Counted from the first letter of the stretch, positions 681 through 21,410 are shown. The stretch: DNA of 64,000 bases from an uncultured Ruficoccus sp. (GCA_965140785.1 OZ223475.1:64001-128000), one strand, 5' to 3'. A program made the numbers and translations. Notes: generated from the letters alone by a model not told the origin.

Positions 681-3161
681 TTACCAGTGCAGGCGGCAGT
701 TGAAGCGCTGCCGCTGGGCGGGAGTAAGTTCGGGCAGGTCGGCGACCTGGGTGACGGAGAAATAGCTGGCGAGGAAGACACGGGCCAGCTCCTTGAGCTC
801 GCGCCAGCGGTCCCAGTTATAGTCGGGGGCGAAGCTGAGGTGGTTCAAAATACTGCGCCACTCCAGCAGGGCGCGTTCGATGTCGCCGTGGCGGAGATTA
901 TCCGAGACCAGTTCGGCGCGGGCGCCGGGGGTGGTGCGGATTTTGGTCAAGACTTCGGCGGCGCCGTTGCCGTATTCGGGTGGCACTCCCTGCTCCAGGT
1001 AGCCAGGGCAGGTGAGGCCGTGGTAGCGCAGACGGCAGATGTTGCCCAGGCGCGAGCTGGCGTCCTCGTACTCCTCGAAGCGGTGCCCGGCGCGGAGGTT
1101 GGCGAGGTCGTAGAGGAGATCCTCCAGGGCGTAGCTCTCGTCTTCGAGCGCGGCGGCGATGGCCAGGCCCTCGCCGTGGTTGAAAAAGCTGAAAATAACG
1201 CCCCGGCGGGTGGGGTGCTTGTTCTCGTCAATGAGGCCGAGCTGATGCCACCACTCGGCGGGGGTGGAGCGAGGCTGGTTTTCGCCGGTGGGCGGTCCGG
1301 CCAGTTCGGCAAATGTGGGGAAAGGCGGGGGCTCGACGATGCGGAAGGGCGGATTGATGAGGGCGCGTCCGTGCGAGTCGATCCGGGCGAAGACCTGCGC
1401 ACCGGAGTAGTCCAGCCGGGCGCTGATGAGGCCGTTGTGCTCAATGAGATCCCGGACTTTGCCGCCTTGGGTGAAGTAGGGCAACAGCGGCACCAGATCG
1501 CGCTCGAAGTGCTCCAGCTTCCATTGGCGGCCAGGGAGTCGTGCCTGCGGGTCGCTCTGCTGATAGTAGGATCGCACGTGCTGGTACATCCATTTGACCA
1601 GGGTGACCGAGCCGGAGCCGGACTTTTGCGGCATCATGGCCAGGGCGACCTGACGCCCATAGGTGTTGCCGTCCCCGCCGCCAAGTTTACAGAGGTTGCC
1701 GACCTGGATGCGGGCCAGGGACTCGGGCAGGCGAAGGGCTTTGCGCCAGCGGCCCTTGCCGTAGATAAGGGTCTCGCCCAGCCGGGCCTTGGTGCGGGGG
1801 CGCTGGCGCTCCCATTCCCCGGCGGAGTTGAGCATCTCCTTGATCTTGGGGCGGGTGGCGCTCTCCTCGCGTTGGGCTTCGACCTGCTTTTGCAGGCTGT
1901 GGCGGGAGCGGGAAATATTCAGCTGCCGCAGACCGAGCGAAATCGGGCGCTCGCTGAAGAGGCGTTCGGCCAGCTTTTCGGCGGCGGCCACGGGGGAGTC
2001 GCCCTGCTGGCGGGCGGTGTGCATGACCGAGAGGAAGCTGCCCCAATCCACGTGCGGCGAGCGGCGCAGTTGCAGGGGGCGGGCCTCGTTGAGCCGGGGC
2101 TTGCCGGGGGCGACGAGGACGTAGCCCTTTTCGTCGAGGCCCCGCCGTCCGGCGCGTCCGAACATTTGCAAAAGCTCGTCCGCGCGCACGAGTTGGCTGC
2201 GGTTACCGGCCTGGTACTCGCGGTCGGTCACGAGAACGGACTTCATGCAGAAGTTGATCCCGGCGGCCAAGCCGGTGGTGGCTACGATGACGCGAAGCTG
2301 GCCCTTTTTGGCCAAGGGCTCGATCAGTCCGGCGCGCTGCTGGTAGCTCAAGCCGCTGTGGTGGAAGGCGATGCGATTTCTTAAAAGCTTGGCCAGGGGG
2401 TCACCGGCGAGCTGCCGCTGCTCGGGGGTGAGCTCCAACCACTCGGGCAGGGGGAGGGCGGCGCTGAGCTGGCGGGCGAGGTCCTCGGCGGCGTGGCGGC
2501 GGGGGGCGAAGACCAGGATCGGCCCGAAGTCGGCCACCAGCGCGCGGGCGATAAACTGCGGCCAGAAGCCCCGGATGTTACCCGGCAGGCGGCTCGGAAG
2601 GGCCTCCAGCATGATTTCGTCCTGGGGGACGGGGCGCTCGTGCCGGTACACCATCTCGGCGTCGCGCCCGATGCGTTTGAGCCAGCCGAGGACGCGCTGG
2701 GGGTTGCCGACGCTGCCGCTGAGGAGCAAAAGCTGGGTGCCGGGCGGAGCCGAGGCGACGGCGAGCTCGTAGTTCACGCCGCGGGTGGCGTCGCCGAGCA
2801 TCTGGTACTCGTCGATGACGAGGAGGCCAGGCCCCTCACCCTTGAGGAAGCGGCCTTTCTGCGTCTCCAGGGTGGCGACCACGACGGGGGCGTCGGTCTT
2901 TTCGGAGACGTCGCCGGTGGCGATGCCGACGTTCCAACCCTGCCGCCGCCACTCGTAGAGCTTGTCATTGGCCAGGGCGCGAGTGGGCACGGTGTAGATG
3001 GCCTGGTGCTTGAAGCCGCTCTTCATCAGCAGCTCGAAGATGTAGGTCTTACCAGCGCCGGTGGGGGCGTGGACAACGACGTCTTTGCCGTCCTTGAGAA
3101 AATTAACCGCCTCCTGCTGCCACAGGTCGGGGATTTTCAGATTGGTAGCAAGCCCTTCCAC
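681..3161 (-). CDS. Ski2/HelY-like superfamily 2 helicase
   Basis: Motif I APTGAGKT, Ia PTRALAN, II LLVIDEYQ, III LSGS, FHHSGL, V ATTGLAAGIN, VI QMFGRAGRRG. Confidence 0.9.
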   Translation of the reverse strand: MEGLATNLKIPDLWQQEAVNFLKDGKDVVVHAPTGAGKTYIFELLMKSGFKHQAIYTVPTRALANDKLYEWRRQGWNVGIATGDVSEKTDAPVVVATLETQKGRFLKGEGPGLLVIDEYQMLGDATRGVNYELAVASAPPGTQLLLLSGSVGNPQRVLGWLKRIGRDAEMVYRHERPVPQDEIMLEALPSRLPGNIRGFWPQFIARALVADFGPILVFAPRRHAAEDLARQLSAALPLPEWLELTPEQRQLAGDPLAKLLRNRIAFHHSGLSYQQRAGLIEPLAKKGQLRVIVATTGLAAGINFCMKSVLVTDREYQAGNRSQLVRADELLQMFGRAGRRGLDEKGYVLVAPGKPRLNEARPLQLRRSPHVDWGSFLSVMHTARQQGDSPVAAAEKLAERLFSERPISLGLRQLNISRSRHSLQKQVEAQREESATRPKIKEMLNSAGEWERQRPRTKARLGETLIYGKGRWRKALRLPESLARIQVGNLCKLGGGDGNTYGRQVALAMMPQKSGSGSVTLVKWMYQHVRSYYQQSDPQARLPGRQWKLEHFERDLVPLLPYFTQGGKVRDLIEHNGLISARLDYSGAQVFARIDSHGRALINPPFRIVEPPPFPTFAELAGPPTGENQPRSTPAEWWHQLGLIDENKHPTRRGVIFSFFNHGEGLAIAAALEDESYALEDLLYDLANLRAGHRFEEYEDASSRLGNICRLRYHGLTCPGYLEQGVPPEYGNGAAEVLTKIRTTPGARAELVSDNLRHGDIERALLEWRSILNHLSFAPDYNWDRWRELKELARVFLASYFSVTQVADLPELTPAQRQRFNCRLHW

Positions 3162-3413
3162 TTACGGGACCACATATTAAGCACATACCGGGCCGGTTGG
3201 CAATGTTTCTTCGTGGGCAATCGTGTGACATTTCGGCTGCGGTATGTGCCTACTGGCCGGTTTCTGGCTACGGGGTTAACGCTTGATAGGGACCGGTCGC
3301 CGGGAGCGTAGGCGATTCCCCCAATAACCAAGCACCAATGACTATTAACAAGTAACTAATGACCCCTAACAAATCCTTGTCGTCGCTCAGAGGGGCTCTA
3401 GTCTGGAGTACAG

Positions 3414-4130
3414 ATGAAAGCCAGCGACCTGTTTGATTTTCCCGAAAGCATGCCCTTCGCCCGCTATTTCAGCCCGGACGAGCCGCCCTGGGTCTGGGTG
3501 ATGAAGGTTGGGATGGCGGCGCAGGAGTTCGACTTCCTGAGGGCCGAGGGTATGCACGGCAACATCCCTGCGGGGGTCAAGCTCTCCGGCAAGGTCTACA
3601 TCCACCACTCGGTCAAGCTGCCGCCCTACGCGGTCATCGAGGGGCCGGCCTGGATCGGGGAAGGAGCGGAAATCCGTCCCGGCGCCTACATCCGGGGAAA
3701 GGTCATCGTCGGCCCCGGTTCGGTCGTGGGTAACTCCACCGAGTTGAAAAACTGCCTCTTGATGGAAAACGTGCAGGCCCCGCACTTCAACTACGTGGGC
3801 GACTCGATCCTGGGGAACAAGGCCCACCTCGGTGCGGGCGTCATCTGTGCCAACCTGCGGCTCGATCAGTCGCCGGTCATCGTGCAGACCCCGGACGGGC
3901 GCGTCGATACCGGCATGCGCAAACTCGGCGCGTTGATGGGGGACTGCTCCGAAGCCGGTTGCAACGCCGTACTCCAGCCCGGCACGATCCTGGGGAAGGC
4001 GGCGGCGGTCATGCCCACGCTGGCCTTCGGCGGCTACCTGGAGGGTGGGACCCTGGCCTTTAACCGGCCCGTCATCGGGCGGGTGCCCCGCCGGGATTAT
4101 CCCAAAAGCACGCCCAACGCGGCCCGGTGA
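3414..4130 (+). CDS. Left-handed beta-helix acyltransferase, GlmU C-terminal-like
   Basis: Hexapeptide repeats, IRPGAYIRG, GNSTELKN, PHFNYVGDSILG, GAGVICAN, GCNAVLQPGT; no nucleotidyltransferase domain. Confidence 0.85.
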   Translation: MKASDLFDFPESMPFARYFSPDEPPWVWVMKVGMAAQEFDFLRAEGMHGNIPAGVKLSGKVYIHHSVKLPPYAVIEGPAWIGEGAEIRPGAYIRGKVIVGPGSVVGNSTELKNCLLMENVQAPHFNYVGDSILGNKAHLGAGVICANLRLDQSPVIVQTPDGRVDTGMRKLGALMGDCSEAGCNAVLQPGTILGKAAAVMPTLAFGGYLEGGTLAFNRPVIGRVPRRDYPKSTPNAAR

Positions 4131-4873
4131 ACATCCGGGCTTCCGGCCAAGGCGGAGCGGCCCTGGGCGGCGTCCCCGCCTTGCCAGTCCGTGATGAGCC
4201 CTCCGGCCCCCCGGATGACGGGGATCAGCGCCATCAGATCCCAAGTCTCCAGCACGGGGTCGAGCATCAGGTCGGCCCGGCCCGTGGCGACAAGGAAGTA
4301 CCCATAGCAGTCGCCCCAGGCACGCGTCAGCCAGGCCGCTTCGGCCAGCTTGTCGAGGCCGGGGACATGGTGCTTCCCCTGGGCTAAGAGGGCCGGGTCG
4401 GTGGTTGAAATAACGGCCTGGTCGAGACTCGGACAGGGGCGGACGCTGACGGGGCGGCCGTTGAGGGTGGTGGTGGCGTTGTCGCCGATTAACAATTCGC
4501 CGAGGACGGGCTGGTGGATGCAGCCCAGGACGGGCTCGCCCCGGTGCAGGAGCGCAATCAGCGTGCCGAAGAGCGGGACGTGGCTGATGAAGGACTTGGT
4601 GCCGTCGATCGGATCGAGCACCCAGACAAATTCCGCGTCTTCGCGCTCATTGCCGAACTCCTCCGCAATGATGCCGTGGGTCGGGTAGTTTTTGGCGATC
4701 ATTGCGCGCATGAGCTGCTCGGCCCCGCGGTCGGCGTCGGTCACCGGGGTCGAGTCGGCCTTGCGCTCGACATGCAGGTCGTCCTCACGCCAGTAGCGCA
4801 GGATGAGTTCGCCGCTGGCCTGGGCCAGCTCGGTCATGAAGGCTTTGAGTTCGTCGCGTAGGGAGGCGTCCAT
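4097..4873 (-). CDS. hisN: Histidinol-phosphatase (inositol monophosphatase family)
   Basis: KADSTPVTDAD, EEFG, WVLDPIDGTKSF, GDCYGY, WDLMALIPVIRGAGG. Confidence 0.85.
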   Translation of the reverse strand: MDASLRDELKAFMTELAQASGELILRYWREDDLHVERKADSTPVTDADRGAEQLMRAMIAKNYPTHGIIAEEFGNEREDAEFVWVLDPIDGTKSFISHVPLFGTLIALLHRGEPVLGCIHQPVLGELLIGDNATTTLNGRPVSVRPCPSLDQAVISTTDPALLAQGKHHVPGLDKLAEAAWLTRAWGDCYGYFLVATGRADLMLDPVLETWDLMALIPVIRGAGGLITDWQGGDAAQGRSALAGSPDVHRAALGVLLG

Positions 4874-5011
4874 GGAAAGGAGTTTTTAACCTAATGCCGT
4901 CCCACGCAAGCTCCGGCTGTTGGTCAGAGAATCATCCCCGGCCAGGTTAGAGGGTTTACAAAGCAAGCCTTGTTTTTTTTCCGCAATCGCGTGTAAGCTG
5001 AGGCCAGAGAC

Positions 5012-5680
5012 ATGCATTGGAAAGATTGCCCCATCCATGTGGTGGATTTTGAAGGGAGCCGCGGCAGTGGCGTGGTCGAGTTCGGCCTGGTTACTCTCTG
5101 GGACGGTGACATCGCCAGTTGCGCGACGCGCCTGTGCCGCCCTTCCGGCCTGATTTCCGCGCAAGAGCGCGCCCAGCACGGCATTTCCCAGGACGAGGCC
5201 CGACTGAGCGAACCCTTTTCGGCGGAGTGGGAACGCTTCACCGGCCTGCGCAAGAGTGGGCCCATGGCGGCGCACCACGCCATGGTCGAGAACGGCTTTC
5301 TCAAAGCCCAGTGGGCCTATCCGCCGTCCTCGCCGGATTTTCTGCATGAGGGGCAGATGATCGCCGATTGGGGGCCGTGGATCGATACCCGGCAGCTCTA
5401 CGCGAGCGTTTACCCCGACCTGAGCGGCTATGGGCTCTCGGAGTTGATCGGGACGCTCGGGCTTCAGGACGAGTTAAACAGCCGGGCCGAGCGGCACTGC
5501 CCCGAGCGGCGCGGCAAGTACCATTGCGCGCTCTACGACGCGCTCGCCTCCGCGCTGCTTCTGCTCAAGATGGGCGAGCAGGAGGGCTTCGAAAACATGA
5601 GCGTTCCCTGGCTGATCACGCAGAGCCAGTCCTCCGCCGACAAGCGCGAAGCGGCCCGCCAGGGCGGGCTGTTCGAGTAG
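5012..5680 (+). CDS. DEDDh 3'-5' exonuclease (DnaQ-like)
   Basis: ExoI VVDFEG, AHHAMVE, WIDT, ExoIII HCALYDA. Confidence 0.85.
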   Translation: MHWKDCPIHVVDFEGSRGSGVVEFGLVTLWDGDIASCATRLCRPSGLISAQERAQHGISQDEARLSEPFSAEWERFTGLRKSGPMAAHHAMVENGFLKAQWAYPPSSPDFLHEGQMIADWGPWIDTRQLYASVYPDLSGYGLSELIGTLGLQDELNSRAERHCPERRGKYHCALYDALASALLLLKMGEQEGFENMSVPWLITQSQSSADKREAARQGGLFE

Positions 5681-5842
5681 AAGGGCTTCGCCGCGCAGGG
5701 CGCAGGCAGGGAGCGGAGGAAAGTTTCTCCGGTTTGCTTTGAACGGTGGAGCCTTTTCGCCGTCTATCCCTGTTAACCAAGCTTCTTACCCTCTTTTTCT
5801 CAGCTTATTCGCGGCATGCAGAGGGAGGCGGCCATTCATTCA

Positions 5843-6454
5843 ATGAGAATCGCATTCTTCGCCCAGCACCGCATCACCTTGACGCGGACCGCCCTTGTTT
5901 TACTCGTTTTGCCGCTGTTTTTTTGCTCCAGCGCCTGGGAGCCGTTTTCGCATTTGCTGTCGGAATCGCTCTTTGCGGTAGGGATTGCGTTGGCCGGGGT
6001 CGGCGTCATCGGGCGGATATGGTGCTTCAGCTACATATCCGGGCGCAAGCAGACCGAGTTGGTGACGCAGGGCCCTTATTCTCTGACGCGGAATCCGCTT
6101 TACCTCTTTTCCATGGTGGCAGTGGTGGGGGTCGCCTTTACCAGTGAAACGCTGCTGCTGCCGTTGTTGGTGTTCATCGTATTTCTCCTGAGCTACCCGG
6201 CCGTGATCCGGCGCGAGGAAGGCGACCTGCTGAGGGTGCACGGAGCGGCATTCACCCGCTATTGCGAGACGACCCGGCGTTTCTGGCCGCGTTTTTCGCA
6301 CTACCGGGAGCCTGTCGAACTCCTGCTCAACCCCCGGGCCTTCCGCCGCGGCCTGCAGGATGTTATCTGGTTCATCGTGGCCTGCGGGATTTTTGAGATC
6401 ATTGAGGGCTTACAGGAGTCCGGGCTGATACCCGTCTATGTCCACCTGGTCTGA
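5843..6454 (+). CDS. Isoprenylcysteine carboxyl methyltransferase / PEMT family membrane protein
   Basis: Hydrophobic helices, LVTQGPYSLTRNPLY, EE..L..HG..F..Y; start could be 5816. Confidence 0.8.
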   Translation: MRIAFFAQHRITLTRTALVLLVLPLFFCSSAWEPFSHLLSESLFAVGIALAGVGVIGRIWCFSYISGRKQTELVTQGPYSLTRNPLYLFSMVAVVGVAFTSETLLLPLLVFIVFLLSYPAVIRREEGDLLRVHGAAFTRYCETTRRFWPRFSHYREPVELLLNPRAFRRGLQDVIWFIVACGIFEIIEGLQESGLIPVYVHLV

Positions 6455-6488
6455 GTGCCAGCGTGACTCCCTGTTGCCCTCCGGATAC

Positions 6489-6518
6489 AAAAAAGCCCGC
6501 TTGATTGCGGGCTAAAAA
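6489..6518 (-). terminator. Intrinsic terminator, probably the original tRNA-Leu terminator displaced by the integrated element
   Basis: AGCCCGC-TTGATT-GCGGGCT stem with an A6 run on + (U6 on -), immediately beyond the duplicated tRNA 3' end. Confidence 0.8.
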
Positions 6519-6519
6519 G

Positions 6520-6536
6520 TGGTGCTCAGGGAGGGA
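6520..6536. repeat. att site: 17-bp copy of the tRNA-Leu 3' end
   Basis: TGGTGCTCAGGGAGGGA is identical to 12464-12480. Confidence 0.95.
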
Positions 6537-6650
6537 AGGAGACTAGGCGCTCAATCCCGCTTCAAGCCTGTGTTTATGCGGGTTCCGGGTTTTGGCTAGT
6601 TTGGGCTTGCGTGCTTTAATTAGGGTATGTTTGTATGAATCTGTATTGAA

Positions 6651-7901
6651 ATGCCAAGCCCGAAATCCACAAAACGCCCGAGCTACCCCAAGTCCATCAA
6701 GCGCGGGAATGTCTGTGTGAAGGTTTACCGGGTGAAGCACCCCCGCGTAAAGGCGGGCGTGGTCTATTCCGTCGCCTGGTACGATGAGACCGGGAGCCGA
6801 AGGCAAAAGCAGTACACGGACCCGGCAGAGGCCGACAAAGAAGCCGTCATCAAAGCCGATAAACTTGCCGCCGGAGAGTTACGGGCGGCAGATGCCACGA
6901 TGGCCGACCTACGGGAGCTTGAGCGGGCGCGGCAACTGGCACACCCCGAACCCGTCCTTGCTGCCTTGGATGAATGGCGGCAGGCACGGGAAGCCTGTCA
7001 GGGGCCGATCCTGCCCGCCGCTAAGGCATGGGCAGAGCGAAACCGCCCCTCCTTTAAGGTCAAGACCGTCAAAGAGGTCTCAGAGCTATTTATGGCCGCT
7101 AAGAAGGCGGCTGGCATCAAGACCAGCGAGAGCTACGAGCGGACTCTCCCTGCCTTTCTGGAGGCCGTAGGAGGGCAGCAGATGCACACGGTAGGGGCAA
7201 GACGCCTTCAAAAGTATCTGGAACGCTACGGAAACCCCGTTTCACGCAACACGCACCGTAAACGGATTGTTACCCTGTGGAGGTGGGCACGCCGGGCGGG
7301 CTACCTGCCTAGAGACGTGCAGACCGAAGCGGAGTTGACCGACCGGGCGCAAGAGACGGCAACCGACATCGGAATCATAGAACCGGATACCTTCTTTGCG
7401 CTCTTGCGACTTATCGAGGCCAAGCACAAGCACTATATAGCCCCGCTTGCTCTTGCTGGGTTCTGTGGATTGCGACGCATTGAGATTCACGGGCAGCGAT
7501 GGGAAGACATTCACCTTGAGCGCGGCTTTGTGCGAGTCACCACCGCCAAAGCCCGCACCCCGGCCAAGCGGCTTGTCCCCCTGGTGGGAGAGGCGGGCGC
7601 GTGGCTCTCAAAGGTTGCGCAGCCTGCCGGGGAGGTTTCGCCGGGCAATACCTGGGTACTGGACAGAATTCGCGACATCGGGCGCACAGCGGGCTTTACG
7701 CTGCCGGAGAATTGCTTTCGGCATTCCTTTATCTCTGCCCGCGTGGCAGCAACCGGGAACCTTGAGCGGACCAGCCTGGAGGCCGGGAACAGCCCGAGAA
7801 TCATTCACCAGCATTACCGCGAGCTTATGACCGCAGATGAGGGCCGGGCATGGTTTGGAATCAAAGAGACCGAAGAGAGCAGCAAGGAGGGGGCGCTATG
7901 A
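6651..7901 (+). CDS. Tyrosine recombinase / phage integrase
   Basis: CGLRRIEI (R), KARTPAKR (K), NCFRHSF (HxxR variant), AGNS, QHY (Tyr); adjacent to att. Confidence 0.92.
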   Translation: MPSPKSTKRPSYPKSIKRGNVCVKVYRVKHPRVKAGVVYSVAWYDETGSRRQKQYTDPAEADKEAVIKADKLAAGELRAADATMADLRELERARQLAHPEPVLAALDEWRQAREACQGPILPAAKAWAERNRPSFKVKTVKEVSELFMAAKKAAGIKTSESYERTLPAFLEAVGGQQMHTVGARRLQKYLERYGNPVSRNTHRKRIVTLWRWARRAGYLPRDVQTEAELTDRAQETATDIGIIEPDTFFALLRLIEAKHKHYIAPLALAGFCGLRRIEIHGQRWEDIHLERGFVRVTTAKARTPAKRLVPLVGEAGAWLSKVAQPAGEVSPGNTWVLDRIRDIGRTAGFTLPENCFRHSFISARVAATGNLERTSLEAGNSPRIIHQHYRELMTADEGRAWFGIKETEESSKEGAL

Positions 7902-8728
7902 GTAGCGAATGGGGCAGCATGTCGGGTGAATGTCCGATTTTGGATGTTGATGGGATGAAAGTCCTTGGCCTTCCTGGGGCCAGTAATGAAAACACTGAGG
8001 CGATAACCTATGTTTATAAACATGCTCCTGACTCATTTAATGATTGGCGAGATGTTGGCGATTTCACCGGACAAGGAGCCATCGGTTGTTTATTAAGCTG
8101 TACTCACTGCTATGCGGATTTCTCAGTTCGATTTGACATTTATACACCCCCATCAGCAGAGAAAAAAGGGCGTATTGAAAGCATAATGCTGCCGTTTAAT
8201 TACGGATGTGGTATGGGGAATGGCACCTTTCAAGATGTTCGTCCTGAGACCAAAAGAGCCCGTGAGGACTGGCTTCAAAAAAACTTGTTTCTTAGCATGC
8301 GCAACAAATCATGCATGGAAGCTATTGAAGCTTTCAAAGTCGAATACAGTGCCCTTATTGGGACAACGATTTGGGCCGGCCTAAGCACTAAGGCAATTTA
8401 CAACGCGTGGAGAGCATTTGATAAAAGAAAAGAGAATTGGAATGATTCTATGGTTTTTCGCCCCTTATTGGCGGCTGGATGGGATGGTTTCTTTTCTCAT
8501 ATAAAGCCGCATCGTGAAATTCTAAATTATTTCCCGAAAAAGTATTTCCCACACCTTACCGAAGGTACTCTTTCAACCGCCATTTCTGGAATGAAACTTC
8601 CAAACGAGCCGGGGCCTATAAAAATTGATATCGACCCTGAATCATATTTCAAATTCGTGCTTATCAATCAGAGCTTACTTCAGCATGAAAACCCACGCAT
8701 ATTAAAATCCGTGTACACGGATACTTAG
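7898..8728 (+). CDS. Hypothetical protein (276 aa), visibly lower GC
   Basis: ATG overlaps the integrase stop (ATGA) and follows AAGGAGG; no recognisable domain. Confidence 0.7.
   Translation: MSSEWGSMSGECPILDVDGMKVLGLPGASNENTEAITYVYKHAPDSFNDWRDVGDFTGQGAIGCLLSCTHCYADFSVRFDIYTPPSAEKKGRIESIMLPFNYGCGMGNGTFQDVRPETKRAREDWLQKNLFLSMRNKSCMEAIEAFKVEYSALIGTTIWAGLSTKAIYNAWRAFDKRKENWNDSMVFRPLLAAGWDGFFSHIKPHREILNYFPKKYFPHLTEGTLSTAISGMKLPNEPGPIKIDIDPESYFKFVLINQSLLQHENPRILKSVYTDT
8707..8722. promoter_or_regulatory. Perfect 16-bp palindrome, putative operator
   Basis: ATCCGTGTACACGGAT, 43 bp upstream of the Xis-like gene. Confidence 0.5.
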
Positions 8729-8765
8729 CAAGATATTTCCCCATGCTTCCCCTATTGTTAGGGGC

Positions 8766-8984
8766 ATGGAAAACAGCATATCCGAACTAAAGCCGTCATC
8801 CTGGGCCATGCAGCGCCTGGGGTTCAGTGACCGGGTTTCCTTCCTTCAATTCGTGAAGAGGGAAGGTGTCCCGTTTTACCGCGTATCCGCACGCAACTTT
8901 AAGTTTTCCCCGCAAGAGGTGGAGGCTTGGCTTGAGGCCCGCCGCGTGGGAGGCCCAAGGGGAAAGGCGAGCTATGCGGGGTAA
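8766..8984 (+). CDS. Small HTH DNA-binding protein (excisionase/AlpA-like)
   Basis: 72 aa, basic, REGVPFYRVSARNFKFSPQEVEAWL resembles the HTH_17/Xis C-terminal pattern. Confidence 0.75.
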   Translation: MENSISELKPSSWAMQRLGFSDRVSFLQFVKREGVPFYRVSARNFKFSPQEVEAWLEARRVGGPRGKASYAG

Positions 8985-9102
8985 GAAGCGCAAGAAGCTT
9001 ATCCGATGGGTGGACCGTTGCCTTGCCAATGGATATGTCCCGTATGGCTGGCCAAAGCGCCGTTGCCTATCCGCAAGGGGGGCGGGGCGTCATGAGGGCT
9101 GA
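8974..9102 (+). CDS. Possible small basic protein (42 aa)
   Basis: MRGKKRKKLIRWVD... bridges its neighbours with short overlaps, as in compact phage operons. Confidence 0.35.
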   Translation: MRGKKRKKLIRWVDRCLANGYVPYGWPKRRCLSARGAGRHEG

Positions 9103-9277
9103 CCGTTTCAAACAAACCGCCCGCCGCCTGGGCTGTGTTTCCGGGCGTGATCTGCTGGCTAGGTTGCCCATAGACGCCAGCGACACCGTAAAGGGCTTCA
9201 CCATAGTTGACACAGTTACGACTGAGCAGCAGGCCCGTGAGCTTGCGAAGGCGGTATCGGATAGGAGCGCCCGATAA
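9092..9277 (+). CDS. Hypothetical small protein (61 aa)
   Basis: MRADRFKQ...; its stop TAA overlaps the Rep ATG (TAATG). Confidence 0.5.
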   Translation: MRADRFKQTARRLGCVSGRDLLARLPIDASDTVKGFTIVDTVTTEQQARELAKAVSDRSAR

Positions 9278-10212
9278 TGAGCAGTGGGGCAGACTGGCAA
9301 TACACGATTCACAGCTCGTTAGACGACGCTGGGCTAGCCGCTAAGCCGTTTCGGGTGCTCTGCCATGTCTTGAGGCGCGGCAACTGCACTGAGAGCGTTG
9401 AAAACATGGCGAAGCATGTTGGGTTCAGTGCGAAATGCGTTCGAGAGGCGTTGCGTGAATTGATAGCCGAGCGCGGCATGATCGAGCGCCAGACGCGGAA
9501 AGGGCGTACATCCATTTATCGAGGGTTGCCCCCTGAGAGGTGGAAAACGAACCCCTCCCCAAAATCGCAAGGGGTACCCAAAACCGTAAGGGGTGGGGTA
9601 TCCAAAATCGACAGGGGGGACTCTCCGAAAACGACAGGGGACCCCTCCCCAAAACCGACAGACGAAGGAAATCCTATTAAGGAAATAAAGAAGGAAGGAG
9701 GGGAGGAAGGAAGCCCACCCCCCGCCATGCTTTCTTTTGATGGATATGAGGCAGCAGATGTTTTCCCGTCGAAATGGCCCGAGATCCTGCAAGCTCTCTC
9801 ATCCATCGAAAATCCCGACGAGCATACCCGCAGACGTATTGCTGTGGCTCGTCTTTGTCACAGTCGTCGAGATAGCTACAACCCGACCCCGGAAGAGATC
9901 GACGGGGAGTTGGCACGCATGATAACCGGCGCTGGAAACTTCGGTACAGTGGGCAGCAAAAGCAGCGGGCGAAACACTGGAACAGCAAACGAAGGAACGC
10001 GCTACGGACGAACTGACCGTGGAGCCGAAATTTTAGACAGACTCACCGAAGCCGAACTGAGGGCTCTTGAGTCACTTCCCGAGCCTGAACAATGGGAAGA
10101 ATTTATGAGCGAGGTATACAAACAGCAAAGGAAGTGGGAAACCGTATCGGAATACCTCAGGCCGCAACTGACAGCCGAGTGTAACGCTTGGGTGCAGGAC
10201 CGTACTTTCTGA
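9277..10212 (+). CDS. Phage-type replication initiator (N-terminal HTH, lambda O / replisome-organiser architecture)
   Basis: N-terminal wHTH-like segment ESVENMAKHVGFSAKCVREALREL, followed by a low-complexity linker encoded by iteron-like DNA repeats. Confidence 0.7.
   Translation: MSSGADWQYTIHSSLDDAGLAAKPFRVLCHVLRRGNCTESVENMAKHVGFSAKCVREALRELIAERGMIERQTRKGRTSIYRGLPPERWKTNPSPKSQGVPKTVRGGVSKIDRGDSPKTTGDPSPKPTDEGNPIKEIKKEGGEEGSPPPAMLSFDGYEAADVFPSKWPEILQALSSIENPDEHTRRRIAVARLCHSRRDSYNPTPEEIDGELARMITGAGNFGTVGSKSSGRNTGTANEGTRYGRTDRGAEILDRLTEAELRALESLPEPEQWEEFMSEVYKQQRKWETVSEYLRPQLTAECNAWVQDRTF
9551..9694 (+). repeat. Iteron-like repeats plus A-rich tract (putative origin)
   Basis: Five imperfect copies approximating CC(C/G)AAAAYCGACAGGGG, then AAATCCTATTAAGGAAATAAAG. 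Confidence 0.65.
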
Positions 10213-10264
10213 TGCCCCATTTACACCCTTGACAAATATACGCATTATGAGGATATTTAAAGAC

Positions 10265-10564
10265 GTGATTTTCATTGAGACCCCGATCTTTACCGATGAC
10301 TGGAATGATGAGGGCTTGGAAGATGAACAGCTACGAGCTTTGCAGAACGAAATCCTGCAAGGCAAAGGCGACATTATGCCGGGCACGGGTGGTTTCAGGA
10401 AAATCCGTATGGCCCGGAAGGGAGGCGGCAAGAGCGGCGGCTATCGAGTGATTTACTATCTCCAGACAGCCGACTTTTGCTTCTTGGTGTATTTCTACGC
10501 GAAAAACAAACAGGTCAACCTTACTCCCAAGCAGGCCAAGGAACTAAAGAAACTGATCGAATGA
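10265..10564 (+). CDS. RelE-superfamily toxin, HigB2-like
   Basis: (V)IFIETPIFT, GDIMPGTGGFRKIR, GKSGGYRVIYY, YAKNKQVNLT; GTG start chosen, ATG 10247 possible. Confidence 0.9.
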   Translation: MIFIETPIFTDDWNDEGLEDEQLRALQNEILQGKGDIMPGTGGFRKIRMARKGGGKSGGYRVIYYLQTADFCFLVYFYAKNKQVNLTPKQAKELKKLIE

Positions 10565-10857
10565 AAGGGACGGTTATGGATAACAAAGACTTTAAGCGCC
10601 TGAAAGATTCCGTACGCCAGATGAAGGCCATCCAAAACGGCGAAATGCCCGCCGGGCGCGTTACCATGCGCCGGGGCCGCGCTCCCGCCGTGGAAACGGA
10701 AATCGCCCGTATCCGGCTGGAGACAGGCTTATCCCAAGCCGCCTTTGCCAAGAAGCTGAAAACGCCCCTCAAGACCTATCAGGGGTGGGAGCAGGGACGC
10801 GCAACGCCCCCCGTTGCCCTGGTAGCTGCCAGGCTCTTGAAAGAGACCGTCTCCTAA
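10561..10857 (+). CDS. XRE-HTH antitoxin, HigA2-like
   Basis: ATGA overlap with the toxin; IRLETGLSQAAFAKKL...TYQGWEQGR. Confidence 0.88.
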   Translation: MKGTVMDNKDFKRLKDSVRQMKAIQNGEMPAGRVTMRRGRAPAVETEIARIRLETGLSQAAFAKKLKTPLKTYQGWEQGRATPPVALVAARLLKETVS

Positions 10858-10861
10858 CCCG

Positions 10862-10888
10862 AAGCCCTGCCATGCGCGGGGCTTTTTT
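10862..10888 (+). terminator. Intrinsic terminator after the TA operon
   Basis: AAGCCCTGC-CATGC-GCGGGGCTT followed by a T run. Confidence 0.75.
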
Positions 10889-10928
10889 GTGGCTGGACCT
10901 AATAGGTGACTGTGATAGTTCTAAACTC

Positions 10929-11819
10929 ATGGCTAAGAAGCTGTCCCCGATCCAAGCAGCCTTACTCCGCTTCAACGGCATTGATCCAGACGGGTTAGAT
11001 ACCCTCGACTATGAAATTGAACTGGATAATCTCAGTAAGCACGGTGACCGTCGCCTGATAGACATCTGGCAAGACTACCGAGGCGAGCATGAAGAAGAGA
11101 TTTTGAAAGAAGGGCCGGAAGTCGTGCCATTTGGGATTGGAGAGCGTTTACTTAAAGAGAAGTTGAGTAAGCCCAAAGTACCTACACCAAAGAAAGCGCC
11201 AACTAAGATTGTTCTGTCAAAAACACAGGCAGAAAGCCGAGAAGGCAAAGAATTGGTTCAACTGATTTGTCGTACATGCAGTTCTACCGAGCTATCAAAA
11301 GACGACCTTAAGAAATTGCGATCTGAAGTCACGAAATACGAAAAGACATGGGATGGCCACGGGGGTGTCATATTCTTGATCGGGCAAATAAACATGCACA
11401 TTGCCGACATGCAGGGCAATGCCCTCTCCTTGGAGCAAAGGATTGCGCTAGAGAACGCCATGCTTCGGCTTCTACCAAAATCCATGAGGGACAATACATC
11501 TATTGCCATCTCTAAACGCCTGGAGAGTGAGCCGATTTCAAAAGGGCAAATTAGTATGCTTCAGTTTTATGGGGTGACGGATAGTCTTGAGGGCATGTTT
11601 TTTGCTGAGGCTAAACGCAGAATTGATGAACTCGGAGTAGCTGACCTAAAGCAGCATATGGCCCGACAAAAAGCAGGCCGGAAAAAAAGAATGAAAGAGG
11701 TGAAGCGGGAAATAGGGCTTCGGGACGCACAAAAGTCTGGATGTGCCCTCATTATCGGCTTGGCTGTGCTCTTGCTCGTTTTGGGAACTGGAGTTGTTGT
11801 TGCATCACAACTGCCATAG
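10929..11819 (+). CDS. Hypothetical protein with C-terminal membrane anchor (296 aa)
   Basis: MAKKLSPIQ... start downstream of the terminator; ends ALIIGLAVLLLVLGTGVVVA; lower GC. Confidence 0.7.
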   Translation: MAKKLSPIQAALLRFNGIDPDGLDTLDYEIELDNLSKHGDRRLIDIWQDYRGEHEEEILKEGPEVVPFGIGERLLKEKLSKPKVPTPKKAPTKIVLSKTQAESREGKELVQLICRTCSSTELSKDDLKKLRSEVTKYEKTWDGHGGVIFLIGQINMHIADMQGNALSLEQRIALENAMLRLLPKSMRDNTSIAISKRLESEPISKGQISMLQFYGVTDSLEGMFFAEAKRRIDELGVADLKQHMARQKAGRKKRMKEVKREIGLRDAQKSGCALIIGLAVLLLVLGTGVVVASQLP

Positions 11820-11994
11820 GGGGGGCAAATCTCTGGAGGGAACGGCCCTGACACCGACCGTGAAGCTTAGAAAAAAATTCGCCCAAATTTTAAGAGGGGG
11901 GGGGTAAGGGGGGTACCCCTAAAAACTTCATGTGTTTTTTTTCGCACTTACAGCACGGTGTCAGAGCTATAGGGTCTAGGTATTTTCACACCCC
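11819..11994. other. Two oppositely oriented cos-like (terminase packaging) sequences
   Basis: G-run/AAA...CTGACACCG...A7-8...GGGG layout on + (core 11848-11856) and on - (core 11964-11956), meeting at GGGGTACCCC. Confidence 0.5.
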
Positions 11995-12053
11995 ATGCCT
12001 ATAGGCACACGCTATTGAATGCCTTGAAGGCAGACACATTTCTTTTCAGGCGT

Positions 12054-12368
12054 TCATGCCTCAGCTTCTACGCTCTCAAGAAGCTGCTGTGCTAGGCGAC
12101 GTGCCACCGCAGGAGGGAGGTATGCGCATGCCGACTCTTGACCCCAGCCCATAATCAAGCAAGGGCATCCGGTACCATCGGCATTAGGTTCTACATTGAT
12201 TGTGCATTCCTGACCGCCGTTTCCCCCGTAAACGGTTGGCGTGGAGAGCTGTCCGAATTCTTCGGTAATGAGGCCCTTTATTCGTTCGATAACTGAAACG
12301 CTACGTTGGGCAGGCAGTATCCCGATGGCGTTGCCGATCGAATACATCTCGTCATCTATCTTTTTCAC
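12054..12368 (-). CDS. Hypothetical protein (104 aa)
   Basis: GTG start preceded by AAAGGAAAG; ends AVARRLAQQLLESVE, a pattern typical of small phage proteins. Confidence 0.6.
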   Translation of the reverse strand: MKKIDDEMYSIGNAIGILPAQRSVSVIERIKGLITEEFGQLSTPTVYGGNGGQECTINVEPNADGTGCPCLIMGWGQESACAYLPPAVARRLAQQLLESVEAEA

Positions 12369-12463
12369 AGTGCTTTCCTTTGATTTAGGTTTGTATGGGA
12401 TTTGTATGTAACAAAACAGGCAAATCCATAACTAGCCTATAACAAGGAACTTACAAAAAACAT

Positions 12464-12548
12464 TGGTGCTCAGGGAGGGATTCGAACCCTCACACCTTGC
12501 GGCACTGCCGCCTGAAGACAGCGTGTCTGCCAATTCCACCACCTGAGC
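12464..12548 (-). tRNA. tRNA-Leu(CAG)
   Basis: GCTCAGG...CCTGAGC-A-CCA acceptor, anticodon loop TT-CAG-GC, long variable arm, GGTTCGAATCC. Confidence 0.97.
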
Positions 12549-12631
12549 AGCTGTGAAAAGGTGGACAAAATCGTGCGCGGGGGAAACTGTCAAGCGACTT
12601 TCCGCACTTCGTCAGGAAAAAACGTGAGGGG

Positions 12632-13366
12632 TCAGGATTTGGGCAGGTAGTCACGGATGGCGGGCAGGGCGATTTCGCGGTGACCGGAGGGCAGGCGGGC
12701 CAGGTAGACGTCGGCCTTTGGGGTGAGGTCGATGACCTCATCGGGCAGTTCGTCCTCGTCCAGCTCCAGCTCGTCGATGGGGTCGAGATTGTCAAAAACA
12801 TGGCTGAGCCGCCGCGGTTCGGGGTGGAGCAGGCGCGGTGGATTGGCGACCTTGCCCTTTTTTACCAGCTCGAAGAGGCAGGGAAAGTGGCGCTTTTTAA
12901 AGCTCAGCTCAAAGTCCCGCATCCATTTATTGCTGGCGTCCTCGCGGCGGTTGAGCAGCACGCAGTCGCAGAAGTGGATCAGCGCCTCGAACCAGGGGCC
13001 GAGCGCCGGTTCCTTTTCTGCCAGGGCGCAGTCGATGACAGCGATCACACGCTGGAGTTCGGCCCCGGTTGCGCCGAGCCAGCGTTTGAAGACCTCGATC
13101 TCATCACGAAAGTCTCCGCTGCCGTTGGCGAGGTAGAAAACGGTCGCTCCGGCGTCCGGAGCGGGGGCGAGCCCGTCGTCCTCGCGCTCGATGATCTCGA
13201 CCTGGGGCAGGGCCGCCAGTTGCTCGTCAAAGGACGAATCGGCCTCCGTGGCCGAGAGGATAATATTGACGGGCTGGTTGGGCTCCAGACCGCCCTCGAT
13301 GAGGTCGAGGACGACTTCGCGTCGACCGGCGCCGGGCGTGCCGAGGATGAGATAGGCTTCGGTCAT
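12632..13366 (-). CDS. Hypothetical protein, degenerate CobW/G3E GTPase-like fold
   Basis: YLILGTPGAGRRE (Walker A-like with K replaced by R), VIAVIDC, CDCVLLNRRE. Confidence 0.65.
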   Translation of the reverse strand: MTEAYLILGTPGAGRREVVLDLIEGGLEPNQPVNIILSATEADSSFDEQLAALPQVEIIEREDDGLAPAPDAGATVFYLANGSGDFRDEIEVFKRWLGATGAELQRVIAVIDCALAEKEPALGPWFEALIHFCDCVLLNRREDASNKWMRDFELSFKKRHFPCLFELVKKGKVANPPRLLHPEPRRLSHVFDNLDPIDELELDEDELPDEVIDLTPKADVYLARLPSGHREIALPAIRDYLPKS

Positions 13367-13436
13367 GAAAAGGGAAATATAATGCGGTTATCGGTCGGGC
13401 TCAATCAAGCGCCCCAAATAAGTGGCACGCGAAGGG

Positions 13437-14543
13437 TCACGGCTGACGGCCCTGATGGGCCATCCACAGGTCGGTCAGGACCAGCCAGGTCATGGCTTCG
13501 ACGATGGGGACGGCACGGGGCACCACGCAGGGGTCGTGCCGTCCGCGTCCGATCAACTCGGTCTCGGCCCCGGAGGTGTCCACTGTGGACTGTGGTTTCA
13601 TGATCGTCGCGGTGGGCTTGAAGCCGACCCGGAAGTACAGCTCCTCGCCGTTGCTGATCCCGCCCTGGACGCCGCCGGAGCGGTTCGAGCGGGTGCGTAT
13701 TTGGCCGCCCTTGTTTTCGAAAAGGTCGTTGTGGTCGGAGCCCTTCATTTGGGTGCCGGTAAAACCGCTGCCGATCTCGAAGGCCTTGGTCGCCGGGAGC
13801 GAGAGCATGGCCTTGCCCAGTTCGGCTTCCAGCCGGTCGAAGACCGGTTCACCCAGGCCGACGGGCAGCCCGCGCACGCGGCAGACAATGACCCCGCCGA
13901 CCGAATCACCCGCCGAGCGGGCCTCCTTGATGCGGGCGATCATCTTTTCGGCCATGGCCGGGTCCGGGCAGCGCACGGCGGAGGCTTCGACCTGCTCCAG
14001 GGTGGGGAAGGAAAGCTGGGGCGCTTCGCCACTGCCGAAGTCGTCCAGCCCGAGCGTGTGGATACGCTCGACATAGGCACGCACCTCGACGGCTCCCGCC
14101 TGCGCCAGGAGTGCCTTTTGAGCGACGGCCCCGGCGGCGACCCGGCCAATGGTCTCGCGGGCCGAGGAGCGCCCGCCGCCCTCGTGGTTGCGGATGCCGT
14201 ACTTGCTCTGGTAGGTATAGTCGGCATGCGAGGGGCGGAATTTGTCCTTCATCTCCGAGTAGGCCTCGGGCCGGTGGTCGGAGTTGGGCACGGTGATGGC
14301 GATGGGGGTGCCCAGGGTGCGGCCTTCGTACACACCGGAAACGATGGTGGCAGTGTCGGTTTCCTTGCGGGGGGTGGTGATGTCGCTCTGGCCGGGGCGG
14401 CGGCGGTCCAGCGCGGGCTGGATATCGTCCTGCGCGCTCAGGGGCAGATTGGGCGGGCAGCCGTCGATGACGACGCCGATGCCGCCCCCGTGGCTTTCGC
14501 CCCAGGTGCTGATACGGAAGAACTTGCCGAAGCTATTACCCAT
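13437..14543 (-). CDS. aroC: Chorismate synthase
   Basis: [45 protein letters not shown]. Confidence 0.98.
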
Positions 14544-14580
14544 GCCGCCACAATGACGGTGCCCCGGCTTCGGTAAAAGT

Positions 14581-14922
14581 CTAAAATTGCCGGGCGATGA
14601 GCCGGGTCAGTTCTCCCTGCAGTTTCTCCAACTCCGGGCGGGAGCGGTGGCGCAGGATCCCGGCCACGCGCTGGAGAAAGTCCTCGGGCGCATAGTTGGC
14701 GGTTTCCATCAAGAAAAGTAACAGCCCGTCGCGGTGAATCTGGTAGGTACGGCGGCGAATCTGGGACGAACGGGCGTTGGAAGCGTGGCCCAGGATGCGC
14801 TGGTTGTCGAAGGCGTCCCGCACGTACTGGTCGGACTTACCGATGATGGCGGCGACTTCCTTGGGTGAAAACCACTCCTGGTCTTCGGGTAGCAAAAAGG
14901 CGAAATGGTCGTTGGCTCTCAT
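14581..14922 (-). CDS. Excisionase-like HTH DNA-binding protein
   Basis: [25 protein letters not shown] and RRTYQIHR wing. Confidence 0.7.
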
Positions 14923-14938
14923 GGCGGAAGCGGGTCAC

Positions 14939-15190
14939 TCAATGCAGGCCGGCCGGGCGGCGAGGGGCGGAAAAGCGCATAGCCAGCTTGATCGCATGCG
15001 AGCGTTTCTCCACGTCCCGGAGGGTTTGGGCCTGCTCCCGCAGTTGACCGGCGATGGCTTCACTCGGGAGAAACTCGGCAAGATCTTCGTAGAGGTCGGC
15101 CCGGCTGGCGACGGGTTCGGTTTCGAGTTTACTGAGGATGTAGTCGACGAGGCGATTCGCAGCAGTGCGGTTCGTTGCAGGCGTATTCAT
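14939..15190 (-). CDS. Hypothetical small protein (83 aa)
   Basis: ATG 15190 MNTPATNRT..., helical, GC-rich like core genes, 16 bp upstream of the HTH gene. Confidence 0.6.
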   Translation of the reverse strand: MNTPATNRTAANRLVDYILSKLETEPVASRADLYEDLAEFLPSEAIAGQLREQAQTLRDVEKRSHAIKLAMRFSAPRRPAGLH

Positions 15191-15364
15191 GACGGGCTCA
15201 GGGCAACCAGACCCTGGGAGGGCGGTGACATGATTAATTAATGTTAAATGATATAAATGCGTTTTTGGTTGTCTTGGAGTGATAAAAGACAATACTGGAA
15301 TAATTAGTGTTGTAAATGAAAAAAGTGGAAAAATTCTACTTTGTGATAGAAAAAATCCATAGTT

Positions 15365-15889
15365 ATGCGACGGACATCCTCCACTCCCAAGATTGACGCG
15401 CAACAGTTCAGCCTGCGCTTTCGGCTCCTGATGAGCTACCATGACCTTACCCTGAGGGATATTGCAAATAGTACTAATAATGCTATTTCTACGGTTGGAA
15501 CCTGGAAAAACGGCCGCGTGCCCGCTTCCCCCGACACACACGAGAGACTGGCCTCCCTTTTTGGGGTCAGTGTGGAATTTCTCCTGTATGGCAATGATGA
15601 GAGTGGAAATATTCCACGGTCGGATCCTGTCAGTCATGTCCTGCGAGATATCGAGGGTGTGCTGGGCGAAATTGACGAGGCATCGGGGGCCTATGAGCCA
15701 GCCGGGAGCTTCCAGGGGCTCTCTCGTTCGGGCCTCGACGAGGAGGGAGTGCCGTATCGGCGTTCCCGCATTGAGGGCTACCTTCGCCAGTTTCTGGACC
15801 GGGCTGAGGCGCAGCCGGGAGGGTTGGCCCACACCTGGTACCACCTTAAGCGGGAGTTCCCGCTGGACCTTTTTTCACGATTGGGATGA
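15365..15889 (+). CDS. XRE/cI-like HTH transcriptional regulator
   Basis: LTLRDIA...ISTVGTWKNGRVP...ERLASLFGVSVEFLLYG. Confidence 0.85.
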   Translation: MRRTSSTPKIDAQQFSLRFRLLMSYHDLTLRDIANSTNNAISTVGTWKNGRVPASPDTHERLASLFGVSVEFLLYGNDESGNIPRSDPVSHVLRDIEGVLGEIDEASGAYEPAGSFQGLSRSGLDEEGVPYRRSRIEGYLRQFLDRAEAQPGGLAHTWYHLKREFPLDLFSRLG

Positions 15890-21336: not shown

Positions 21337-21410
21337 TGGCAGGCCCGCAGGGATTCGAACCCCGACAAACAGAACCAGAATCTGTCGTGCTACCGTTACA
21401 CCACGGGCCT
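21337..21410 (-). tRNA. tRNA-Gln(CTG)
   Basis: AGGCCCG/CGGGCCT-G-CCA acceptor, ACAGA-TTCTGGT-TCTGT anticodon arm, GGTTCGAATCC. Confidence 0.96.

Follow-up and report, generated by a model that had tools for sequence, protein, structure and literature searches.

What kind of mobile element occupies the 3′ end of a tRNA-Leu gene in an uncultured Ruficoccus sp., and could so small an element be carried by a phage whose particle genes it lacks? The locus lies in a stretch of 64,000 nucleotides (nt) (GCA_965140785.1 OZ223475.1:64001-128000), here called the window, by which we mean that whole stretch with positions counted from its first letter. A preliminary description made from the sequence had placed at 6520..12480 a minimal phage satellite of the phage-inducible chromosomal island (PICI) type. 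We find that the locus is a genuine and intact minimal integrative element in the 3′ end of tRNA-Leu(CAG), with 17-bp repeats that restore the tRNA. We give about an even chance to the reading that it is a minimal helper-dependent phage satellite, of the kind described as minimalist chromosomal islands inducible by phages (PICMIs) and as integrative mobile elements encapsidated in virions (VEIMEs), in which an initiator resembling the O protein of phage lambda takes the place of a primase. Judged from its predicted genes, it is not a member of the PICIs or the PICMIs under those systems' own rules.

The evidence for an insertion comes from both ends of the element and from related genomes without it. 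ARAGORN places tRNA-Leu(CAG) at 12464-12548 on the minus strand, and a 17-nt direct repeat is exact at 6520-6536 and 12464-12480, with an extended match of 21 of 23 nt, so that the element measures 5,944 bp between repeats. The terminator of the tRNA gene lies at the far end (6494-6513), just outside the left repeat, and in two congeners, G001 and G002, the homologous terminator directly adjoins the tRNA, which makes these empty sites. In G001, window positions 6489-6536 and 12464-14598 match neighbouring stretches whose overlap is exactly 17 bp, with synteny on both flanks, and G002 has the identical junction. The G+C content drops from 0.60-0.69 in the flanks to 0.43-0.60 within the element. 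Thus, from the repeats, the terminator, the empty sites and the drop in G+C, we conclude that this is a true insertion that displaced the tRNA terminator, and the att repeats and displaced terminator proposed in the preliminary description are borne out. The genome holds a single copy.

All of the element's genes are on the plus strand except one, an open reading frame (ORF) of 104 aa. The order is integrase, orphan gene, AlpA-family gene, small ORF, an initiator with a predicted N-terminal winged helix-turn-helix (wHTH) domain and internal iterons, a RelE/HTH pair and an orphan cargo gene, and to this point it is the order first proposed. A non-coding region of 208 nt follows. The ORFs are all intact, and there is translational coupling at three junctions. 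Coordinates and the basis of each assignment are collected in Table 1.

The replication gene sets this element apart from PICIs and PICMIs. The initiator matches the PHROG family phrog_391, "replication initiation O-like," at E=1.9e-5, and its predicted wHTH domain matches HTH_36 at E=0.0048, below the cut-off, with three related initiators (at loci L037, L038 and L042) above that cut-off. A degenerate form of the 14-nt iteron core has 5 matches in the 64-kb window, all at 9559-9662, versus 0.08 expected from shuffled sequence; because the pattern was derived from those copies, the evidence is their clustering and not a p-value. In the stretch directly after the iterons, a 40-nt interval starting at 9657 has an A+T content of 0.65 against a gene mean of 0.45, and an (AAGG)n run occupies 9679-9713. 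Each of the four loci that we checked (the window, L037, L038 and L042) has tandem repeats within its initiator gene, and an A+T-rich stretch likewise follows them in the three relatives. Iterons within the initiator gene are the lambdoid arrangement, whereas Rep_3 plasmids usually have their iterons upstream. The resemblance to lambda O and its origin therefore consists of a predicted N-terminal DNA-binding domain, then intragenic iterons, then an A+T-rich stretch, along with the PHROG matches. The differences are that the window initiator is not followed by a P, DnaC-like or DnaB gene, whereas relatives at L044, L047 and L052 have such a partner; that the matches are weak (E about 1e-5); and that the C-terminal half has no recognisable relatives. 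No helicase-loader or helicase partner gene stands beside the initiator, the next gene being that of the RelE toxin, and no element ORF matches a primase or DUF3987 in Pfam or PHROGs. The preliminary description had put iterons inside Rep and had proposed a lambda-O-like initiator in place of the usual primase-helicase, and both proposals are supported.

At the left end, alignment of the integrase with its relatives shows that the R, K, R and Y catalytic positions are kept and that the two usual catalytic histidines are missing, N/D replacing the first and N the second. The pattern R..K..NxxRH..AGNS..HY is common to the integrases of the window element, L042 and L038 at 22-28% identity, and because three elements this far apart have the substitutions, we regard them as a lineage trait and not as decay. 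Membership of the 72-aa protein in the AlpA family is supported at the level of sequence profiles. A profile of 8 homologues, to which seven found beside related integrases contributed, has as its only significant match in the PDB 8c3t_A, an "AlpA family phage regulatory protein" (E=2.5e-4), and an alignment-based model with a predicted local distance difference test (pLDDT) score of 76 superposes on 8c3t with a template-modelling (TM) score of 0.70 and a probability of 0.99, at a Foldseek E-value of 0.09. A single-sequence model (pLDDT 70) had no significant Foldseek match.

Between these two genes, the 276-aa orphan occupies the same position as the gene iolg of PICMIs. It has no family match in Pfam, PHROGs, NCBIfam or PADLOC, finds only itself in a word search of 5.8 billion proteins, and reaches Atlas scores of at most 0.81. 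By eye, it has a CxxxCxxC motif (window 8087-8110), the site of a chance-level match to the NCBIfam "radical SAM mobile pair protein B" (E=0.12, not significant), and its Atlas leads at 0.80 include a radical-SAM-named cluster and a DUF5131 cluster, neither of them significant.

Within the sensitivity of searches of Pfam, PHROGs, NCBIfam and PADLOC, the ORFs have no match to genes for capsid, terminase, portal, tail, lysis or relaxase functions, nor to known defence genes. For capsid, terminase, lysis and relaxase genes this agrees with the preliminary description, and the absence of packaging and structural genes is limited by the four ORFs (276, 84, 296 and 104 aa) that have no annotation of any kind. 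PADLOC returned no defence family, with chance-level wHTH matches to the initiator only, and Pfam and PHROGs returned no relaxase.

The closest relatives of the integrase arm have some of the genes that the window element lacks. Integrase matches at E<=1e-12 occur in 69 of 401 genomes sampled from the order, its own genome counted, and near-full-length matches at 36-60% identity occur at 19 places in 14 genomes of the order. Among 16 loci with integrase homologues that we compared (PHROG annotation covers those other than L063-L067 and L069-L071), an AlpA-like homologue lies beside the integrase in seven, and an O-like initiator in none. The two closest of these loci are elements bounded by repeats of a tRNA-Arg(CCT) 3′ end. 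L056 (G271:C35:300-17521, element about 6314-15368) is 9,027 bp long with a 28-bp repeat, and its integrase and AlpA-like protein are 60% and 58% identical to those of the window element; L058 (G227:C98:170900-188900, element 1872-9818) is 7,933 bp long with a 14-bp repeat, the corresponding values being 49% and 57%. Both have the topology of the window element, with the integrase at the end distant from the intact tRNA. Both encode an integrase, an unknown gene product and AlpA, then a replication protein (DnaD-like in L056, a primase in L058), TerS (E=2e-44 in L056 and 8e-10 in L058) and a major head protein (E=1e-10 in L056 and 7e-89 in L058). No ORF of either matches TerL, portal or tail, and the integrase and AlpA are the sole genes that these two elements and the window element have in common. 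An element of 8-9 kb that has TerS and a capsid protein cannot be an autonomous phage, so L056 and L058 look like satellites, and we propose them, from two genera of the order, as candidate satellites that encode a capsid protein themselves. These relatives also bear on whether the window element is a decayed prophage, as would follow if relatives had the same genes followed by full structural modules. The closest integrase/AlpA relatives are att-bounded elements of 7.9-9.0 kb with only TerS and capsid genes, which favours the preliminary description on this point.

Other relatives of the integrase have primase-helicases as neighbours (L060 and L061) or belong to larger islands that also encode helicases and methyltransferases (L057, L059, L062 and L068). 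One contig, G099:C3, has four integrase copies (at 1256545, 2257113, 2582821 and 2840066) that are 38-39% identical to the window integrase, which suggests a multi-copy element.

Relatives of the initiator are few. A word search found only six other proteins, and the initiator and these six share a build in which a wHTH domain is followed by short peptide repeats, different in each protein, and then by an EGNPIK-like motif. An initiator profile matched in 9 of 401 genomes sampled across the phylum, its own genome counted, and the two best of the other eight were examined. The first, L038, is an 8,158-bp element with 25-bp repeats in tRNA-Leu(GAG) that encodes an integrase, an HTH_17 protein, the initiator, and eight or nine unannotated ORFs. 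Between its integrase and HTH_17 genes (9487-9606) are two tandem 60-nt repeats, 75% identical and each with an internal palindrome, which are probably a regulatory region. The second, L037, is a low-G+C island of about 12 kb with undefined ends that encodes an integrase, RNase H and the initiator, together with a protein weakly resembling TerS (phrog_51, E=5e-9). In a Fibrobacteria metagenome-assembled genome (L039), an exonuclease and RecT precede the initiator, and TerL and a portal protein follow it.

A narrower initiator alignment identified 1 locus in genome contigs and 15 in metagenome contigs, and annotation among the latter is confined to contigs longer than the five shortest (<3 kb). 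Phage-like contigs among them are L043, with endonuclease VII and a head protease; L044, with a DnaC-like loader and queuosine genes; and L047 and the L052 group, with a DnaB-like helicase beside the initiator (L049, L051 and L053-L055 are assigned to the L052 type from ORF layout alone). L042 is an 8,810-bp element in tRNA-Gln, bounded by a 33-nt repeat at 97%. Its integrase is related to that of the window element (27% over the full length), and besides the initiator it encodes RelE and antitoxin proteins of the PHROG families seen in the window element. It also has an internal duplication of about 150 nt (3889-4055 and 7706-7869, 73-88% identity), one copy upstream of rep and the other upstream of or overlapping the toxin gene, which by eye encodes the C-terminal end of an AlpA-like protein.

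The right part of the element begins with the RelE/HTH pair, which fits a type II toxin-antitoxin system as predicted from two domains above cut-off and from adjacent overlapping genes. The antitoxin likely starts at 10561, overlapping the toxin stop, and its MqsA and NadS matches are below cut-off. The 296-aa cargo protein has no family match, and an exhaustive HMMER search returned itself and three weak matches. A second element of the genus is informative here. It is a remnant of 2,570 bp (L012 8841-11444, G003:C52) with 34-bp repeats in tRNA-Gly(TCC). Its integrase is truncated, DUF3987 is present only as a C-terminal fragment (E=4.5e-7), and it also has a pair resembling BrnT/MqsA. In this remnant, the terminator-like hairpin and the conserved non-coding region are 41 bp apart, and because there are just 41 bp at that place, we conclude that the cargo gene of the window element sits in an insertion slot.

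The non-coding region itself is present in 2 of the 401 genomes of the order, with one copy per genome. The window and G003 elements differ in integrase, target and replication gene, so one non-coding module serves two elements. On the minus strand, its folding has a z-score of -3.27, with 0 of 200 shuffles as good, versus -0.77 on the plus strand, and of 48 pairs, one is compensated, a count that comes from two copies only. An Rfam search over 6300-12700 with E up to 1 returned only the tRNA and sub-threshold noise at the terminator, and no family for this region. Two other explanations of the region were rejected: a small conserved protein, since on neither strand do the ORFs of the two copies agree outside the conserved DNA, and a MITE or REPIN (short dispersed repeats), which is ruled out by one copy per genome. 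The preliminary description had labelled the right end "cos-like," and that label gives way to a conserved non-coding inverted-repeat region at 11819-12026, without support as a cos site. That a helper recognises the region is offered here as a hypothesis only.

Table 1. Features of the integrative element and its borders, in window coordinates
Feature	Position	Strand	Basis
Displaced tRNA-Leu terminator (hairpin and T-run), just outside attL	6494..6513	-	terminator scan; homologous stretch abuts tRNA in G001/G002
attL, 17-bp copy of tRNA-Leu 3′ end	6520..6536		exact repeat; equals G001 flank-match overlap
Tyrosine integrase, 416 aa, divergent subfamily	6651..7901	+	phrog_1 E=1.8e-14; PF00589 E=3e-5, below cut-off
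Orphan gene, 276 aa	7898..8728	+	ATGA overlap with int stop (7898-7901), AAGGAGG eight bases upstream
AlpA-family excisionase/regulator-like wHTH protein, 72 aa	8766..8984	+	homologue profile, model superposition
Small ORF, 84 aa	9023..9277	+	stop overlaps rep start (TAATG); no family match
Replication initiator, 311 aa, predicted N-terminal wHTH (HTH_36-like), lambda-O-like	9277..10212	+	phrog_391, HTH_36
Candidate origin: five iterons within rep (14-nt core, 19-24 bp apart)	9559..9662		repeat search, pattern scan
Candidate unwinding element, A+T-richest purine-rich stretch of rep	9657..9715		directly after last iteron
RelE-family toxin, 111 aa	10229..10564	+	PF06296 E=4e-14, 53.3 bits vs cut-off 27; phrog_5869 E=1e-22
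HTH (Xre/MqsA-like) antitoxin	10477..10857	+	HTH_3 26.5 bits vs cut-off 23; phrog_2104 E=2.7e-12
G+C-rich hairpin and T-run after antitoxin, terminator-like by eye	10858..10888	+	97% identical in G003; not in terminator scan
Orphan cargo gene, 296 aa from ATG (ORF opens 10785)	10929..11819	+	hydrophobic C-terminal segment by eye
Conserved non-coding region, long imperfect inverted repeat	11819..12026 (208 nt)		86% identical to G003:C52
Orphan ORF, 104 aa, only opposite-strand gene	12054..12368	-	no family match
tRNA-Leu(CAG) with attR (3′ 17 nt at 12464-12480)	12464..12548	-	ARAGORN, repeat search

The comparison with the literature covers three sets of published elements. SatelliteFinder defines a PICI by five components and treats three-component "Type C" sets as possibly satellites, other mobile elements or chance aggregates (PMC10085698). 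Of the five, the window element has an integrase (phrog_1) and a regulation module, for which an alpA, merR or stl homologue qualifies and which its AlpA profile supplies; it lacks a primase-replicase, TerS and a capsid morphogenesis gene, with the caveat that orphan ORFs could hide the last. With two of five core components and a replication analogue, it would thus be at best an ambiguous "Type C" set, and the PICI-type assignment of the preliminary description does not hold. What it shares with PICIs, including the Staphylococcus aureus pathogenicity islands (SaPIs) and capsid-forming PICIs (cfPICIs), is a backbone of integrase, AlpA-type regulator and replication gene plus accessory genes, to which L056 and L058 add TerS and capsid.

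PICMIs are closer. As reported from the Vibrionaceae, they have six genes, int, iolg (usually in an ATGA overlap with int), alpA, up1, prim and up2; they integrate beside fis without capsid-remodelling genes and have been shown experimentally to be packaged as concatemers by a virulent helper; and their detection model needs int, AlpA, a DUF3987/DUF5906 primase and fis (PMC10803314). The window element likewise consists of a handful of genes, with an integrase, an ATGA-overlapping gene (frequent but not mandatory in PICMIs, here at 7898-7901), AlpA, a small gene, a replication gene and an accessory slot, and capsid-remodelling and packaging genes are absent both from it and from PICMIs as that report describes them. 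It departs from PICMIs in having no DUF3987/DUF5906 primase (the G003 remnant has a DUF3987 fragment) but a wHTH initiator with iterons, and in its place in tRNA-Leu(CAG) and not next to fis. Helper packaging is demonstrated for PICMIs, whereas the window element is known from its genes alone.

VEIMEs, from seawater, are integrative, have monomers of <5 to 16.8 kb without major capsid genes, and occur as concatemers in virions; their hosts include Verrucomicrobia, and some have plasmid-like replication initiators (PMC9618062). The window element resembles them in small size, integration, lack of capsid genes, initiator-type replication and the presence of Verrucomicrobia among hosts. It differs in that VEIMEs are defined by their virion concatemers, whereas it is known from sequence and compared by description and may itself be one of the VEIMEs already listed, and in that the Verrucomicrobia-associated VEIMEs of module 3 have mostly serine recombinases as opposed to a tyrosine integrase. 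Small satellites that lack capsid genes have already been published, and their hosts include Verrucomicrobia (PMC10803314, PMC9618062). On those reports the novelty suggested for a very small satellite without packaging genes, some VEIMEs being <5 kb, is overstated.

In the satellite reading, to which we have given an even chance, the tyrosine integrase and AlpA-family protein, perhaps with the ATGA-coupled gene, would excise and integrate a circle; the wHTH initiator would bind the five intragenic iterons beside the A+T-rich stretch and open the origin; and because the element encodes no helicase, loader or primase, these would have to be supplied by the host or by an infecting phage. The toxin-antitoxin pair would stabilise the element, and the orphan in the accessory slot would be a membrane-anchored protein. 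Because the element has no packaging or transfer gene, its spread would depend wholly on the packaging of multimers by a helper, as for PICMIs and VEIMEs, and the 208-nt inverted-repeat region would be the best candidate for a cis-acting site. Several observations count for this reading. The insertion is real, with empty sites in two congeners; the backbone order mirrors the PICMI order int-iolg-alpA-up1-prim-up2 as published; the AlpA assignment has profile-level support; repeats lie within rep at all four initiator loci checked; the metagenome pieces described below hint at recent spread; relatives of the predicted integrase and AlpA lie with TerS and capsid genes in L056 and L058, and those of the initiator in phage-like contigs and small islands; and the ORFs are intact and tightly coupled, with no TerS or capsid remnants.

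Other results weigh against it. None of the ORFs matches TerS, and the element lacks the primase that defines the replication modules of PICIs, PICMIs and P4. The AlpA assignment is weak from the single sequence (TIGR01764 at E=0.017, HTH_17 at E=0.11), and the Foldseek E-values of the models are not significant, the alignment-based model having bettered the ranking and not the E-value. No helper was identified in the element's own genome, which is 90.85% complete and has no match to PF03354, PF05065 or PF04860. Its one cluster of head genes, on contig C32 (G000:C32:38762-47757, L019/L020), encodes TerL (phrog_5909, E=4e-33) and head-maturation-protease-type and major-head-type proteins, is flanked by non-phage genes, has no recognised portal or tail, and could be a remnant, a capsid-forming island or a cluster like those of gene transfer agents. 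Nothing similar to the 208-nt region lies near this cluster, near the relaxase loci or elsewhere in the genome; two motifs of the region have no match in IMG/VR, and one has none in the JGI metagenomes. In the assembled contigs of four sequencing runs, where rare forms are not visible and parts of the element are uncovered in runs X2-X4, there were no joints of an excised form, a circle or an empty site. The initiator, finally, has no match in IMG/VR or, by tblastn, among 50,697 cultured-phage records, and the same method finds its N-terminal domain on eight plasmid records (Nostoc, Deinococcus and Acaryochloris).

These last results are also evidence for the foremost alternative, a contender that we nevertheless think unlikely: the element could be an integrative plasmid-like mini-replicon that no phage packages. 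It would excise, replicate as a small plasmid of the theta or iteron type that its toxin-antitoxin pair maintains, and spread through mobilisation at an unrecognised oriT, in vesicles or by transformation. Integrative plasmids and mini-elements like the actinomycete integrative and conjugative elements (AICEs, pSAM2 type) are small and have an int/xis/rep core in a tRNA gene. Toxin-antitoxin pairs are classic plasmid maintenance modules, packaging genes are absent, and three matches to the relaxase family PF03432 in the genome (which also has one match to PF03237) could mobilise the element in trans. The window element differs from the pSAM2 type, however, in having no Tra/FtsK-like transfer gene and another type of initiator, and it lacks the relaxase that, with or without a recognisable oriT, marks an integrative and mobilizable element. 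There is no match to PF03135 (VirB4) in the genome, and the conserved region is unlike anything near the relaxase loci. The plasmid reading is further opposed by the intragenic position of the iterons, by the metagenome relatives of the initiator, which are mostly in phage-like replication or packaging contexts, and by the integrase/AlpA arm, whose nearest counterparts are in elements with TerS and capsid genes.

Less likely still is a reduced and immobile remnant, a satellite, or the end of a prophage, from which an internal deletion removed the TerS and capsid module and which its toxin-antitoxin pair now maintains: the presence of those genes in the closest integrase/AlpA relatives, the decay documented in the genus by the att-bounded G003 remnant, the single copy, the unseen excised form and the missing catalytic histidines would fit it, but the ORFs are all intact with three coupled junctions, the att repeats match exactly, no piece of the TerS, capsid or other genes of L056 and L058 is present, the histidine substitutions recur in three divergent elements, the gene set is kept at 96-99% identity in the metagenomes of a second study, and because the replication modules differ, simple deletion does not derive the window element from the TerS-bearing relatives.

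Those metagenomes, with the sequencing runs, provide what population data there are, and no RNA dataset is listed among them. One run contains the integrated form in a 21.5-kb contig with zero differences, and a second run of the same organism and study has the element in pieces. Two algae metagenomes from another study contain pieces of the integrase, orphan, toxin-antitoxin, cargo and 104-aa genes and both junctions. Among 32 of the 115 pieces, element parts differ from the window by 0.6-4.6% and flank parts by 8-11%, with a likeness floor of 88% and with flank pieces that may derive from other relatives in the samples; this divergence is a hint of recent spread.

The satellite reading can be taken further, to a proposal that is doubtful but in our view possible, namely that this Verrucomicrobiota order has an undescribed lineage of satellites, the window element among them, with a shared integrase/AlpA arm, interchangeable replication modules, graded packaging equipment, a double dependence on helpers and a helper-recognised 208-nt site. 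The shared arm would consist of the catalytic-variant integrase (N/D...N), a variable int-adjacent gene and the AlpA-family protein, and an O-like initiator, a DnaD-like protein or a primase would be swapped behind it. Packaging equipment would range from TerS and an own capsid protein in the forms of 7.9-9.0 kb down to none in the 5.9-kb form, which would need a helper both for helicase loading at its partner-less O-like origin and for packaging. The 208-nt region, common to the window element and the primase-type element of the genus, would be the site that the helper recognises.

Beyond the element, the window has a 113-aa ORF on the minus strand at 14581-14922, past chorismate synthase, that is HTH/excisionase-type by eye; beside it (15001-15500) the G+C content dips to 0.48, and this may be another small islet. 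Further along are a tRNA-Gln gene (21337-21410) and a tmRNA gene (25785-26137, tag GENEYAMAA).

More than 99.9% of the PICIs found by SatelliteFinder are in Proteobacteria and Firmicutes (PMC10085698). Satellites have been documented mostly in these two phyla, and in others mainly through bulk sequencing of virions. The present locus offers a concrete family that can be delimited in an order of the Verrucomicrobiota, with forms from capsid-gene-bearing to gene-minimal, and it indicates that an integrase/AlpA arm can join a lambdoid initiator in place of a primase. Should the element prove to be packaged, it would show how little a satellite must encode and would give a candidate cis-acting site; otherwise it is a small islet of the ordinary kind.

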